Origin: a bacterium
GTDB taxonomy: Bacteria > Zhuqueibacterota > Zhuqueibacteria > Residuimicrobiales > Residuimicrobiaceae
Assembly: GCA_035419245.1 (NCBI GenBank)
Contig: DAOLSP010000006.1
Coordinates: forward strand, 66,758-130,757
Direction: 5' to 3'
Length of the DNA stretch: 64,000 nt
Shown in pieces: positions 42,199 to 52,865 of the stretch; position 1 is the first letter of the stretch; every line of letters begins with the position of its first letter. The translations under genes and the position numbers were made by a program. The notes under the pieces were generated by a model that was not told the DNA's origin, did not search any database, and worked only from the letters and a program-made list of their open reading frames with translations.

Positions 42199-42240
42199 GG
42201 CCGGTGATTGCGGGATCGCAGTCACCGGCCTTTTCTTTTA
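42199..42240. terminator. Bidirectional terminator between the efflux operon (+) and the minus-strand operon
   Basis: GGCCGGTGAttgcgggatcgcagTCACCGGCC followed by ttttctttt. Confidence 0.7.
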
Positions 42241-42927
42241 AAAGCAGGTTTGCAGGGAGAAGAGGCAGCGGGGCTGGAAGACCCCATCGCCGAAGTGCAG
42301 GTTAAAGTGTGTGTGACTGGCGAGGTTTTTATTGTGGCGGTTGACGCTCCAGACCGCATCTATGGCGCTGACCAGGTGGTTGGCGAGGATAGCGCCGAGA
42401 ACGAAGGTGGAGCGGTTGCGCGCCTTCTCGGAGGCGATGCGTATCTGGTCGAAATGGGCCTTGTTGGCGGCCGTGTCCCATTTCCAGTAATAGCGCGCCG
42501 TGTCCTGATAATAGTCCTCCAGATTACGCTGGCGCAGCTTGGCGGCGTTATACTGGCCGATATCGGCATAGTTGCCGATATTGGTGTAATAGGTATCGTT
42601 CTTGCCCTTCGGATCCACTCCGGCATGCCGGGCGGCGAAACTCTCATATTCATCACGCCGCCAGCCGGAATAGGTCACAAAGCCAGTATAGCCCAGCCAC
42701 AAGCTGATCTCGGTCCCGAGAAAGATGTAGGATTTGGTGGTTGCATCGGCGTAGCGCTCACCGAGCCCGGGCAGCAGGAAAGAGAGCATCATGGCCTTGC
42801 CCCTGGACTTGGCGGCGAGTGCCAGCGGATCGCTCGTCTCCTCCTGCATGGCGAATCCGCCGCTGATGCCCTGCGGCGCCGCGGCCAAAAGTAAAGCCAT
42901 ACCGATCCAGAATGCGATTCGCTTCAT
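42238..42927 (-). CDS. Secreted hypothetical protein, paralog of the next gene
   Basis: Signal peptide MKRIAFWIGMALLLAAAPQG. Shares blocks with 42933..43754: LLPGLGERY vs IVPGAGQVY; LWLGYTGF vs SWYLYSGY; LANHLVSAIDAVWSVNRHN vs LNHMTSALEAAFSVSRHN. Confidence 0.6.
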   Translation of the reverse strand: MKRIAFWIGMALLLAAAPQGISGGFAMQEETSDPLALAAKSRGKAMMLSFLLPGLGERYADATTKSYIFLGTEISLWLGYTGFVTYSGWRRDEYESFAARHAGVDPKGKNDTYYTNIGNYADIGQYNAAKLRQRNLEDYYQDTARYYWKWDTAANKAHFDQIRIASEKARNRSTFVLGAILANHLVSAIDAVWSVNRHNKNLASHTHFNLHFGDGVFQPRCLFSLQTCF

Positions 42928-42932
42928 AGGGC

Positions 42933-43754
42933 TCACCAATCTACGCGAAGAGTGAGCGCGCTGTAGTGCTTCTGGTCCATCTGCCGCGGCTCGAAATAGA
43001 GACGGGCCTCGGCGACTTCCCGGTTATGCCGGCTGACGCTAAACGCCGCTTCGAGGGCGCTGGTCATATGGTTGAGGATGACCACGGTCAGGCAGGTCGT
43101 TGCGTGCTTGAAATTCCGGTTGCTGGCGTCGCGACGGGTTTCGTAATAGAGCCGCCGCGGCGACCGAATCTGATCCTTGAGATAAGTCATCTTGTCCGTT
43201 GGACTCGGGGTGGTCGTATAAATGTCATTCCAGCCATAGTTGAACTGGTTATACTTGCCGATCATTTCGTAGTACTGCTGGTCTTTGGTCAAATGCAGAC
43301 CATGGCTGAAATTGAGGTGTTCCCACTCGCGCAGCGCTTCGATATCGCCGACTGGTTTGCCGGACATCGAGGCAATGGCTTGCCAGTATTTTTCTTCGCT
43401 CCAGTTGGAATCGGCATACTTTTCATATTCGTCCTCGATATCCTGACCCTTGCCCTGATACCCACTGTAGAGATACCAGCTCGCCGCTTCGACGGCGAGG
43501 AAGCCGAGGGCTTTGAGGTAGGAGCCGTCGTAAACCTGGCCGGCGCCCGGAACGATAGCGGAGAACAGGAGGGCTTTGCCGGGTTTTTTGAGGGCGACAT
43601 AGGCGTCCGCGGACTCGGCCGTCGAGTCTTGCAGCATGGCGGTATCGGCCAGGGCCAGCCGGGTACGCGGGCTATCGAGGATGAAATCCTGCCAATCTCC
43701 TGCTTGTGCGACGGCCGCCAGCGCCAGGAGGGCGGCCAGAAAGACCTTCTTCAT
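42933..43754 (-). CDS. Secreted hypothetical protein, paralog
   Basis: GGAAGGGAG RBS. Signal peptide MKKVFLAALLALAAVAQAG. Blocks shared with the preceding gene (see 42238..42927). Confidence 0.65.
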   Translation of the reverse strand: MKKVFLAALLALAAVAQAGDWQDFILDSPRTRLALADTAMLQDSTAESADAYVALKKPGKALLFSAIVPGAGQVYDGSYLKALGFLAVEAASWYLYSGYQGKGQDIEDEYEKYADSNWSEEKYWQAIASMSGKPVGDIEALREWEHLNFSHGLHLTKDQQYYEMIGKYNQFNYGWNDIYTTTPSPTDKMTYLKDQIRSPRRLYYETRRDASNRNFKHATTCLTVVILNHMTSALEAAFSVSRHNREVAEARLYFEPRQMDQKHYSALTLRVDW

Positions 43755-43771
43755 CTGCAACTCCCTTCCGA

Positions 43772-51100: not shown

Positions 51101-51199
51101 GCCCGGCACGCCGATCGCATGCAACGGGGCTGCCAGAGCAGCCAGGAAGGCCCCGAAAGAGCAGAGGGCGCTGAAAGAGAGGAGAAAGCGTCGTGGCAT
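48125..51199 (-). CDS. T9SS-type cargo: M6/InhA-like metalloprotease-like domain (HExxH apparently lost), FG-GAP/VCBS repeats, CTD-like tail
   Basis: Signal peptide. N-terminal RILALRVEFVAD and MVFHAGAGQD blocks resemble the M6 family. Where M6 proteins carry HEYGHxLGLPDxYD this protein has LLFGSQLGMPSLFD. Several FG-GAP-like calcium-binding repeats (EDLDGDGTLDLAAAGTDG, GDIDLDGLPEIL, ADLDQNGTDELYY). C-terminus CYPNPAAEGQATIRFTL…VRIFDLAGN…GVYLARV… is CTD/FlgD-like. Confidence 0.7.
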   Translation of the reverse strand: MPRRFLLSFSALCSFGAFLAALAAPLHAIGVPGARILAAPLAAPRLAQGAVRILALRVEFVADAVATTTGTGRFDYSTTATHPLDRPPHNRTYFQHQLLGLANYFARVSGGRVQISSDVFPEAENEAYQLQHDMVWYSGTEDEKLQQQRWAELLRDALQLAAAGGGIDFSRYDALMVFHAGAGQDFAFDIDYTPYDIQSVYMDAAALAGGLGLDPATFKGIACPGGVYFHDGIILPETQNQESYDLGLLGTMTLLFGSQLGMPSLFDTRSGRAGIGSWGLMDQGSYNFQGYIPAEPSAWEKIWMGWETPVVVQSGRGVRIGTSHTVSAPHIIKVPVTSSEYYLIENRQRDPNKDHRTIGRDESGKKAEFDSTGRVVAASGIGVLTRVDEYDFGLPGNGLLIWHIDEKVIQANLASNTVNGQIDHRGVDLVECDGAQDIGYVYSMLDAGYGTENGDWWDPWWSGNESHLYVNHADAVVFSDSSIPSSNGYNDAVTRIRFDHFSGLDTVMTLDISSGAIKSGFPRLEALNSALDPATLSGRPGKDATTGLITAATREGQLYLWRSDGGVFLSGGGYVAAWPLAAPAGAPLFADLDQNGTDELYYPAVTGELYAYNLAEKASAPGLLDLRGIVPLSDSGIMRLAVLGGDHPALLLGDSRGRISLLRYDGTNGPLKSVASFEGNGSAVSGLAVAPDGLVVAACNDGLITALRLEPLTLLWQRQSGLGPSQPLIADFDGVAGYEIAALDSNGVLASIAIDGTLLGRYQAPVRLSGAGRPALGDIDLDGLPEILCATREGAAAFEFNGALVLNFPVASPSGGGIPASPLFIKAKQGNEAWLLFAGGDGLIHACNRRGKTPAGFPLGAGTAAGAALLLEDLDGDGTLDLAAAGTDGSLNLFDPGLQASDNSVWGEAGGAQRTFCLPGSSVAPTPVSDLLPARKVFCYPNPAAEGQATIRFTLSRPADAVRVRIFDLAGNFVEELKRTGLGPGDHEIVWNVARVQSGVYLARVIAETGSTSRFEIIKIAVTN

Positions 51200-51306
51200 G
51201 ATCCGACCCGGAAAATGAATAACCTAGGTACTGCGCGGGGGACAATATGCGAAGGGCAAAAGCTTTCGCAAGCTTTTGCCCTTTTTCAGAACGGTCAAAT
51301 GGTCAA

Positions 51307-52386
51307 TTAAAAGCCGATGCTCAAGGAGAAGCGCATGGTGTTGGCGAGGGGATGGCCCTCATCGGCGGAGACATAGCTGAAATCGAAACGGTAGAGATTG
51401 TAGGCAATGCCGGCGCCGAGGCTGAAATAGTCGACCTTGCCGTCCTGGTCCCAGTAATACCCGGCGCGCAAGGCGAAGAGGTCGTTATACCAATATTCGG
51501 CGCCACCGCTGACGATCCCCTTGAACACGTTGTCATATTTTACGTTGCTGGTGTCATTGGATGCGCCGGTCCGCTTCTTTTCCACCCAGGGCGAGGTAAA
51601 AATCGCCTTGTAGAAGGGATCGGAGGTGCCATCGGCATAGCGTTTGACCATCGTCTTGTTCAGATCAGCGACGAAGGTCAGCTTGTTGTATTTATTGTTG
51701 ATGGCATGCGCGGCGAAGCCGACCCGGAGGTTGGTGGGCAGGGGGTCAGCTTGAGAGGCGTCGATATAGGTGATTTTGGGGCCCATATTGGAGAGGTTGG
51801 CTCCGACACTGAAAGCGTTGGAAACCTTGTAGAGGGTTGCGAGGTCGAAGCCGAAGGCGCTGGCGCGGCCATCGCCTTGTTCCGATCCGGCGCCGAATGG
51901 CGAGAGGTTGGACTGGATGAAGCGTGCGCCCAGGCCGACGGCCCACTTTTCGCTCAATTGGGTGCCATAGGTCAGCGAGATGGCATATTCGTTACTGGAA
52001 AATTCGCCGATGGGATCGGGGCCCGATTCATCCGTGCGCGACTGGGTGCCCAGATTGAGGTAGGTGACGTTGATGCCCACGGTGCCGATGTTCTCGAAAT
52101 GCATGCGGTAGGCGCCGAACTCGTAAAAAAGGTCGGTGCCAAGCTGCGGCAGCCAGTTGGTATGCATCAGGGTGAGCTCCCGGCCCCGCTGGAATCCCAG
52201 GCCGGCCGGATTGTAATAGACGGCAGTGGCGTCATCAGCCAGACCGACGAAGGCTTCGCCCATGCCCGCGGCGCGGGCACCGGGTGAGATCTGGAGAAAG
52301 AGCACGGCGGATTCACTTACGGCAAGGGCCGAAGCGAAGGAGCCGAGGATGACGACCGCAATGAGGCATCTAAACAGGTTTTTCAT
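51307..52386 (-). CDS. FadL-superfamily outer-membrane beta-barrel (PorV/PorQ-like), first gene of the operon
   Basis: GGGAGGAAG RBS 4 nt before ATG (MKNLFRCLIAVVILGSFASALA signal peptide). N-terminal LFLQISPGARAAGMGEAFVGLADDATAVYYNPAGLG hatch motif. Ends in an aromatic (…LSIGF). A 479-bp AT-rich region lies upstream. Confidence 0.75.
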   Translation of the reverse strand: MKNLFRCLIAVVILGSFASALAVSESAVLFLQISPGARAAGMGEAFVGLADDATAVYYNPAGLGFQRGRELTLMHTNWLPQLGTDLFYEFGAYRMHFENIGTVGINVTYLNLGTQSRTDESGPDPIGEFSSNEYAISLTYGTQLSEKWAVGLGARFIQSNLSPFGAGSEQGDGRASAFGFDLATLYKVSNAFSVGANLSNMGPKITYIDASQADPLPTNLRVGFAAHAINNKYNKLTFVADLNKTMVKRYADGTSDPFYKAIFTSPWVEKKRTGASNDTSNVKYDNVFKGIVSGGAEYWYNDLFALRAGYYWDQDGKVDYFSLGAGIAYNLYRFDFSYVSADEGHPLANTMRFSLSIGF

Positions 52387-52865
52387 GACTTCCTCCCGGT
52401 GAACACACAATCCAATTTGCTGCTTGTCAAAAAAAAATCCGAATGTCGGGCTGAATAGTTACAGCTTCTCGCCCATGGGCATTCGGAAATAGTGCAAGAA
52501 GCCTATACGTATTCGTTAAAGCAACACCAGTTGCAGCGTGTTTTAAACAGACTGGTTAAAAAACTCTAACGAATGGATATAGGCTTTCTCCTGTACGATC
52601 AAACTCTTTTTCTGTATTAAAAAGTAACAATGAAAAAAGAAATTTGCAAGCATTTTTTTACATTTACGGCATGAGTTACAATAATCATACCAAAGTGAAG
52701 CGGCGGCTGCAATGAGGCAAGGTCTGCAACAAACCATTGCTTTACTTATAGTTGCAAATCATGTCCCGGTAAGGTAGAATGGGCTGCAGCAGCCGATGTG
52801 TCTCATTTTTGGAACAACCGGCCAACTTTCAGCCACTGCAGAGTACAACCGCCGGGATCAGCAAC

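Follow-up and report, generated by a model that had tools for sequence, protein, structure and literature searches.

A conserved cluster of T9SS sorting genes with accessory parts not described before and a candidate cis-regulatory leader RNA

Six minus-strand genes (g1 to g6) in a 64,000-nucleotide stretch of contig DAOLSP010000006.1, hereafter the window, make up a cluster of type IX secretion system (T9SS) sorting genes, with accessory parts that have not been described and with what may be a new cis-regulatory RNA. The best explanation of the locus is that it is the extended porV operon of a KSB1 bacterium, and we hold this picture, together with the roles that are proposed below for the accessory genes, to be probable with moderate confidence. 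The core statement that this is a conserved porV/T9SS sorting operon is held much more firmly than the overall picture, and the roles of the individual genes are held much less firmly. PorV and type-A C-terminal domains (CTDs) are textbook T9SS parts, and what is known of the T9SS mechanism comes almost entirely from two Bacteroidota genera. In at least five other phyla, represented by hundreds of species genomes, a constant set of three or four uncharacterised genes, one of which joins an Omp85 barrel to a protease in an unusual way, accompanies porV (often together with porU), along with a shared structured leader RNA.

The cluster spans 42238-52386 if g1 begins at the ATG chosen here, which lies behind a GGAGG ribosome-binding site, and 42238-52410 if the longest g1 open reading frame (ORF) is taken. 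In the order of transcription the genes are g1 (51307-52386, 359 aa), g2 (48125-51199, 1024 aa), g3 (46832-48085, 417 aa), g4 (43772-46825, 1017 aa), g5 (42933-43775, 280 aa), and g6 (42238-42939, 233 aa). Gaps of 107, 39, and 6 nt separate the first four. Depending on which start codons are chosen, g4 and g5 are either about 17 nt apart or overlapping, and g5 and g6 are either 5 nt apart or overlapping. A signal-peptide-like segment is present at the N-terminus of all six proteins, and the closest homologues of g2, g3, and g4 are found in metagenome bins of candidate division KSB1 and of Calditrichota. A previous examination of this DNA from its letters alone (the sequence-only reading) had described six tightly spaced genes, and all of the ORFs are present as it described them. 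Its domain calls also hold in hidden Markov model (HMM) searches and structure models, with g1 in the PorV family, g2 carrying a dead M6-like domain, FG-GAP repeats, and a CTD, g3 forming a barrel, and g4 joining a peptidase and a propeller to an Omp85-like domain. The link that it drew to the T9SS is borne out by a porU gene that adjoins the cluster in relatives, by the family membership of g1, and by the type-A CTD of g2. The gene arrangement, which it had not recognised as a known one, is not found in the searchable literature, and searches on the topics of T9SS, PorV2, DUF5683, and porV/porU attenuation returned no paper on the cluster, the g3 family, or the leader; one apparent mention of PorV2 proved to be 'PorV' with a citation number 23.

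Gene order in other genomes is the strongest guide to what this cluster is. A profile search with g4 over GTDB species representatives gave 577 or more relatives. The best 80 loci were kept with 10-kb flanks, and the six window proteins were mapped against their ORFs (loci of relatives bear L numbers below). Of the 61 loci that have enough flank, 58 carry g1 and g2 homologues in order immediately before g4, a count composed of 56 found by script plus two visible false negatives (L036 and L054). In 63 of 68 loci, g4 is followed by a g5 homologue. Homologues of g6 were found in 25 of the 80, including KSB1- and Calditrichota-labelled loci, and were not found in Ignavibacteriota-labelled ones. 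The syntenic loci span KSB1, Calditrichota, Ignavibacteriota/Melioribacter, Kryptonia, Marinimicrobia, and Latescibacteria, and the outer flanks of the cluster vary from lineage to lineage. Because the g1-g2-g4-g5 order recurs in relatives, the arrangement is far from chance, and the adjacency that the sequence-only reading had allowed might be fortuitous is not.

The same loci connect the cluster to porU. About 38 of the 80 loci have a full-length PorU homologue as the gene directly preceding the g1 orthologue, among them L085 (798 bits) and L033 (863 bits), where the model cut-off is 420. Adjacency of porU and porV also occurs in Bacteroidota. As judged from these comparisons, the loci show an ancestral order of (porU)-porV-M6i-(variable slot)-Omp85/protease fusion-DUF5683-like, where M6i denotes an M6-like inactivated protease, the elements in parentheses are not always present, and the last gene occurs in one or two copies. 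They likewise show that porU, which is absent from the window, is not adjacent to porV in the window's lineage, and that a PorV/PorQ-family paralogue, g3, occupies the variable slot there.

The first gene, g1, matches the Pfam PorV family (PF19572) with an E value of 6e-30 and 105 bits (cut-off 27) and belongs to the NCBIfam PorV family (NF033709, 298.7 bits, cut-off 90). Its best solved relative in a search of the PDB is Flavobacterium johnsoniae PorV (6h3i_F, E 1e-35), and it carries both a signal peptide and the NPA motif. Syntenic g1 orthologues score 260.5 (L079), 267.5 (L083), 247 (L031), 217.5 (L024), and 178.4 bits (L058) on the PorV equivalog model NF033710, and those of L079 and L083 clear its cut-off of 250. 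Because the conserved unit is the porV-led order given above, with porU at its head in many relatives, g1 is best classified by sequence as an orthologue of general PorV, a FadL-family outer-membrane carrier, and not as a private shuttle. The cargo-specific shuttle role that the sequence-only reading had considered is not supported for g1. According to PMC12618676, PorV recognises all type-A CTDs. Two more proteins with such domains are encoded in the window on the plus strand at 16967-18898 (643 aa) and 29059-31017 (652 aa), neither of which has a Pfam domain at E up to 1e-5 beyond its CTD. The presence of at least these two further type-A CTD proteins fits an organism that uses a general T9SS.

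A candidate assignment of g1 to the NCBI family 'PorV2' (NF052325) was rejected at 59.8 bits against a cut-off of 325. The PorU2 (NF052324) and PorV2 models represent a putative second sorting system and came to notice through NCBIfam matches on L085:1510-5502 and L033:1706-5650. Nothing in the window reaches the cut-offs of either model. Both are numbered beside NF052323, the model for the g2 family, and these adjoining accessions show that NCBI curators are at work on related systems.

A second line of evidence comes from the 5' spacer of g1 (52387-52865), which measures exactly 479 bp from the stop codon of a gcvH-like ORF (52866-53243, with accC beyond it) to the g1 ATG. The sequence-only reading had described a 479-bp AT-rich promoter region. 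The length is exact, and the GC content is indeed low (0.42 versus 0.60 in the operon), but the spacer is more than a promoter, as it contains a conserved structured leader. When it is aligned with three relatives, it contains blocks that are as conserved as coding sequence. The leader RNA (52429-52598, minus strand) is about 170 nt long, consists of two hairpins and a U-run, and stops some 43 nt short of the g1 start. The arms of its long hairpin, P1, are GCCUAUAnnnnUUCGUUAnAG and CUUUAACGAAnnnnUAUAGGC (52564-52584 and 52501-52521). The second hairpin (CCGAAUG...CAUUCGG, 52438-52487) is followed by a run of nine U residues (52429-52437), and from its sequence this combination looks like an intrinsic terminator. 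The predicted minimum free energy of the leader is -64 kcal/mol (z = -5.85).

The distribution of this element is restricted to the same genes. A 21-nt motif from the leader occurs once in the window, where 0.03 occurrences are expected. In Joint Genome Institute (JGI) metagenomes, 21 of the 45 exact matches to the motif are located just upstream of a PorV-like gene (20 cases) or PorU (one case); the other 24 were set aside as chance matches in which the rest of the leader element is missing. A covariance model built from 17 leaders and run on 1.26 Mb of the loci returned more than 40 sense-strand copies, every one directly 5' of porV or porU, and the sole other matches were antisense images of the palindromic hairpin. 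The leader precedes porV in KSB1- and Calditrichota-type loci and porU in Ignavibacteriota- and Kryptonia-type loci. The first arrangement was recorded in L001, L004-L006, L010, L012, L013, L015, L016, L018-L021, L026, L028, L029, L048, and L064, and the second in L031, L033, L035, L036, L040, L042, L067, L070, L074, L082, L083, L085, L086, and L102. The shared leader thus ties the g1-led operon of the window to the porU-porV operons of other phyla independently of gene order.

The leader alignment is consistent with a folded RNA. Standard pairs fill 92% of its pair cells, versus 21-45% in slid controls, and double changes are present in 10 of 18 pairs, with G-U pairs common. A DNA palindrome or operator is a less likely interpretation, since many of the pairs are G-U and the compensatory changes preserve pairing only in RNA. 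Rfam searches gave no match at gathering thresholds, and at E up to 1 they returned noise alone on the leader. The CAUUCG of the terminator 3' arm recurs in the 5' arm of the long hairpin, which could therefore pair with the terminator 5' arm. This alternative pairing suggests, from sequence, a terminator/antiterminator switch, and the leader may act as a transcription attenuator. Upstream of it is a candidate promoter (52619-52650, minus strand) with a CTTG box at 52647-52650 and TACTTTTT at 52619-52626, a combination that we presume corresponds to the Bacteroidota-type -33/-7 consensus. The block AAAAAAATGCTTGCAAATTTCTTTTTTC..TTGTTAnTTT at this position is kept in L004, L005, and L006, and a sigma-70 scan found nothing on the minus strand there.

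The g2 protein is composed of an M6-like domain (residues ~46-516), an FG-GAP/beta-propeller region (~520-930), and a type-A CTD (940-1019). Its N-terminal domain scores 79 bits on the M6 model TIGR03296, under the cut-off of 110.8, and its HEFGH motif is replaced by LLFGS. The first histidine and the glutamate of HExxH are gone in 22 of 22 aligned g2 homologues, and the whole family is therefore catalytically dead. This family is already curated at NCBI as NF052323 ('T9SS-dependent M6-like inactivated metalloprotease'), which gives it a name, and no tested function for it was found in the searchable literature. The best stretch of g2 on this model covers model positions 39-547. Syntenic g2 orthologues score 545-1014 bits on it, and those in Melioribacter, Kryptonia, and an Ignavibacteria-like bin exceed its cut-off with 839-1014 bits.

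The CTD of g2 is above threshold on two models (PF18962 Por_Secre_tail, 32.7 bits against 27; TIGR04183, 30.6 bits against 23), and its best PDB match is the CTD of PorU (6za2), though weakly (E 0.017). The last 95 residues of g2 (48125-48412) were compared with the CTDs of the two other window proteins (16967-18898 and 29059-31017) and of PorU and M6i proteins from L001, L024, L033, L079, L083, and L085. Three classes emerge from this comparison: generic cargo, PorU, and M6i. Scores within classes are 57-116 bits for M6i, 75-153 for PorU, and 70-89 for generic cargo, the last being reached mutually across unrelated proteins and organisms. Scores between classes are 30-44 bits, even across phyla, and M6i versus generic cargo gives 33-42. 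A relationship of g2 to PorZ or PorU as a homologue was considered and rejected, as the match is limited to the CTD.

The structure model of g4 (predicted local distance difference test, pLDDT, 85.5; predicted template modelling score, pTM, 0.80) contains an MA-clan zinc peptidase (residues ~45-325), a six-bladed TolB-like propeller (~330-595), and, at ~651-1013, an Omp85-type barrel of 16 strands that bears an L6-like GLRGY loop. The peptidase is an alpha/beta domain with HEFSH at 140-144 and a downstream E200 (HEFSH...AEG). No variation occurs at H140, E141, H144, or E200 among 43 sequences, so that both the HExxH motif and the glutamate ligand are in place, and g4 is predicted to be an active protease. 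It scores 27.8 bits on Pfam Peptidase_MA_2, under the cut-off of 32.4. The C-terminal barrel resembles BamA, TamA, and FhaC and has the conserved loop-6 motif LRGY, which fits the (V/I)RG(F/Y) pattern. Its score on Pfam Omp85 (PF01103) is 18.2 bits (threshold 24), and its scores on the BamA/TamA models are also below threshold. The model contains no CTD and no polypeptide-transport-associated (POTRA)-like unit, and the peptidase and propeller are found in the POTRA place.

The two distal genes, which the sequence-only reading had taken for small secreted paralogs, are indeed paralogues (25% identity, E 1e-14). The other half of that description must be modified, because both proteins are DUF5683-like and, in hydropathy analysis, show hydrophobic stretches in addition to the signal peptide, and they are probably membrane-associated rather than simply secreted. 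On the Pfam DUF5683 model, g5 scores 31.1 bits, above the gathering threshold of 26.7, and g6 scores 18.2 bits. For g4, g5, g6, and the g3 family there is no NCBIfam model and no informative Pfam family; the g5/g6 pair matches the uncharacterised DUF5683 only.

If these assignments are correct, they suggest a mechanism for the extended porV operon. Transcription would start about 220 nt upstream of g1 and would be gated by the leader through terminator/antiterminator pairing. The g1 protein would be the general PorV carrier that receives type-A CTD proteins from the SprA translocon. The g2 protein would be exported by Sec and then by the T9SS. With its zinc and catalytic residues gone it could not cleave peptides, and it might, by means of its beta-propeller, serve as an adaptor or binding subunit, docked at the surface on a PorV-family barrel through its CTD in the manner of Porphyromonas PorU and PorZ. 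The attachment complex there consists of PorU, PorV, PorQ, and PorZ (PMC10947112), PorU and PorZ are seated on PorV and PorQ (PMC11285876, PMC10947112), and both retain their CTDs in P. gingivalis (PMC11285876). The g4 protein would be anchored by its Omp85 barrel with the zinc protease and TolB-like propeller facing the periplasm, and it might process or clear T9SS-related polypeptides with the propeller gating access to the protease. The g5 and g6 proteins would be membrane partners.

Together, g2, g4, g5, and g6 may form a dedicated outer-membrane anchoring module or a surface protease complex, as the sequence-only reading had proposed. We raise more tentatively, as something possible rather than probable, that the M6-like pseudoprotease, the Omp85-anchored zinc protease, and the DUF5683-like proteins are unrecognised core parts of cargo sorting and attachment in the T9SS of non-Bacteroidota phyla of the Fibrobacteres-Chlorobi-Bacteroidetes (FCB) group, where they would replace PorZ/PorQ or add periplasmic processing, and that the whole porU/porV operon is switched by a new class of attenuator RNA.

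Several observations weigh against the picture of an extended porV operon with these roles. In the window itself, g1 scores 231 bits on the PorV equivalog model, where the cut-off is 250, and g2 scores 502.3 bits on NF052323, where the cut-off is 600. Similarity between g2 and PorZ or PorU outside the CTD was not detected in HMM and PDB searches, and the separate M6i class of CTDs may reflect mere orthology. Covariation in the leader is modest, with stem cores that are nearly invariant and an alignment that was fitted to the model. That the g4 protease and propeller face the periplasm is assumed by analogy with the usual Omp85 topology. L053, L066, and L084 each encode a full-length g4 homologue that has no PorV-like, M6-like, or DUF5683-like neighbours; they may represent either paralogues or loci that were rearranged. 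The tallies of PorV-family, PorU, PorQ, and PorZ proteins cover the window and the flanked loci only, as opposed to a whole genome. Finally, the searchable literature holds no experiment or paper on g2, g4, g5, or g6.

The most serious competing explanation treats g2, g4, g5, and g6 as co-regulated passengers, that is, as a surface or periplasmic unit for proteolysis or nutrient capture that depends on the T9SS or on outer-membrane assembly and has no mechanistic role in secretion or attachment. A predicted active protease in g4 would suit such a unit, as would the ligand-binding beta-propeller of g2 and its ordinary type-A CTD signature. The window neighbourhood is also rich in hydrolases and includes a TonB-dependent receptor, and the NCBI name for the g2 family says only that it is 'T9SS-dependent'. 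However, adjacency to porV and porU is kept across several phyla while the outer flanks differ, which is unusual for ordinary cargo. In addition, the CTD class of g2 is distinct from that of generic cargo and the protein is catalytically dead. We regard the passenger explanation as rather unlikely, though it deserves to be taken seriously.

Much more doubtful is the idea that g4 acts with g5 and g6 as a device for outer-membrane biogenesis or quality control, in which a BamA/TamA-like barrel and a BepA-like protease would serve the large T9SS barrels instead of cargo. The Omp85-type barrel with its conserved L6-like LRGY motif fits this idea, and so does the placement of a protease and propeller on the presumed periplasmic side where POTRA domains would be expected. 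BepA offers a natural likeness for the g4 protease. On the other hand, g4 has no POTRA domain and its Pfam Omp85 and BamA/TamA scores are under threshold, no evidence of a functional lateral gate is at hand, and nothing links g4 to a substrate.

The preferred reading of the locus as an extended porV operon also has to account for g3, the second barrel. This protein has no Pfam match, and its scores on the PorV family model NF033709 (40.1 bits against 90) and on PorQ (15.7 bits against 220) are below the cut-offs; it does not match PorV2 (NF052325, cut-off 325). Distant members of its family reach 31-39 bits on the PorQ model. It is related to g1 with 29% identity over about 350 residues (E 6e-26). 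The AlphaFold model of g3 (pLDDT 85.6) has 14 long strands and an N-terminal plug of coil and helix, and its top Foldseek matches are PorV (8gl6_F, E 3e-15; 6h3i_F), then FadL and TodX. In the NPA motif, N61 and P62 never vary, and conservation of A63 is 90% or higher. The modelled fold identifies g3 as a probable divergent paralogue of the PorV/PorQ family with a FadL-type barrel. Structure prediction, which the sequence-only reading had proposed as a check of the strand counts, gives 14 strands for g3 and 16 for the g4 barrel, and an NPA motif is present in g1 and, together with a PorV-like fold, in g3.

Between g2 and g4, g3 is found only in the window's own clade, in L004 and L006/L007, whose g4 proteins are 82% and 68% identical to that of the window. 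It is missing from the slot in relatives with g4 at 63%, 57%, and 49% identity and in every remaining species representative. L113 is a close relative (1674 bits for its g2 homologue against window g2) in which only the last ~40 codons of g3 are left between g2 and g4 (L113:7587-7799, 58% identical to g3 residues 376-415). This fragment looks like the remnant of a deletion, and g3 would then be dispensable. The g3 family has 724 representatives at E up to 1e-3, and homologues with 44%, 38%, and 29% identity are located elsewhere in their genomes, beside neighbours that have no informative domains. A recent tandem duplication of g1 was rejected as the origin of g3 in view of the 29% identity and of this 724-member family found elsewhere in other genomes. 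Because g3 is limited to one clade, is present as a remnant in L113, and is located elsewhere in other genomes, the alternation of barrels and large proteins appears from these comparisons to be a local, recent, and dispensable feature. Where g3 is present, it could provide an extra, PorQ-like docking barrel.

The gene order of the window invites an attractive interpretation that the synteny shows to be wrong. The sequence-only reading had seen a repeated barrel-then-cargo unit, and the corresponding model, in which g1+g2 and g3+g4 are two dedicated modules and each PorV-like barrel shuttles or anchors the ~1000-aa protein that follows, can draw on the alternation itself, on the PorV-like nature of both barrels, and on the genetic pairing of type-B cargo with PorP/SprF shuttles described in PMC12618676, but it is very improbable given that g4 is itself an Omp85-type outer-membrane barrel with no CTD, that a direct comparison found no similarity between g2 and g4, that the g3 slot is clade-limited, degraded in L113, and filled from a family found elsewhere in other genomes, and that g1 is a general PorV orthologue that adjoins porU in relatives.

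In other phyla the variable slot contains different genes. ORFs of about 220 aa are located between g2 and g4 in many Ignavibacteria/Ignavibacteriales- or Bacteroidota-labelled loci (the slot loci are L016, L019, L021, L035, L039-L042, L045, L047, L050, L051, L069, L072, and L082). Six of the slot proteins were scanned for domains. Those of L035 and L042 are FlgD_ig/CarboxypepD_reg-like, that of L021 has a sub-threshold match to the small-barrel family OMP_b-brl, that of L082 is a 466-aa Big_5 protein, and those of L019 and L069 gave no domain match. Small, unrelated genes occupy the slot there.

The cluster resembles several described systems in part. Like the porU-porV locus of the Bacteroidota P. 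gingivalis and F. johnsoniae, it has a PorV-family 14-strand barrel, with porU directly upstream in many relatives. A CTD-bearing partner of ~1000 aa with a beta-propeller recalls the PorU/PorV/PorQ/PorZ complex, to which the window adds a second PorV/PorQ-like barrel. In contrast to the Bacteroidota system, the partner here is an M6-like pseudoprotease with no PorZ or PorU homology beyond its CTD, and g3 falls under the PorQ and PorV cut-offs. The T9SS component lists in PMC10947112 include neither an Omp85-protease fusion nor a DUF5683 gene. The PorP/SprF-type-B cargo pairs of F. johnsoniae (PMC12618676) are similar in that an outer-membrane shuttle gene lies beside the gene for the carried protein. 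They differ in using PorP/SprF shuttles and type-B CTDs, whereas the barrels here are of the PorV family and the sole CTD is type A.

Among protein families, NF052323 shares with g2 a strongly matching N-terminal half, a dead active site, and a type-A CTD, although the window protein does not reach the equivalog cut-off of 600 bits and diverges more in its propeller half. M6 peptidases such as immune inhibitor A also align with the g2 N-terminal domain, which differs from them by the family-wide destruction of HExxH. Compared with the Omp85 superfamily (BamA, TamA, FhaC, Sam50), g4 carries, in place of POTRA domains, a six-bladed TolB-like propeller and a zinc peptidase of the MA clan. The cluster supplies candidates for cargo sorting and anchoring in organisms where Porphyromonas-type components may be missing, and its leader supplies a candidate for controlling expression of the secretion apparatus.

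Some features of the surroundings complete the description of the locus. On the 5' side, the block gatA-gatB-(efp, accB)-accC-gcvH (52866-58658, minus strand) is syntenic with the KSB1 relatives L001 and L004-L006. L001 has an inserted gcvP-like gene that separates gcvH from the porV leader. On the 3' side, a terminator scan found a GC-rich hairpin with a 14-bp stem at 42199-42230, which was reported on the plus strand and is strand-neutral, as its stem is symmetric. This hairpin separates the g6 stop codon from a convergent ABC-permease gene and is the likely end of the operon. Farther away in the window (21030-26647, plus strand), an 1102-aa TonB-dependent receptor with a CarboxypepD_reg domain is followed, with a 4-nt overlap, by a 770-aa ORF that has no Pfam match; the two may constitute a SusC/SusD-like pair.

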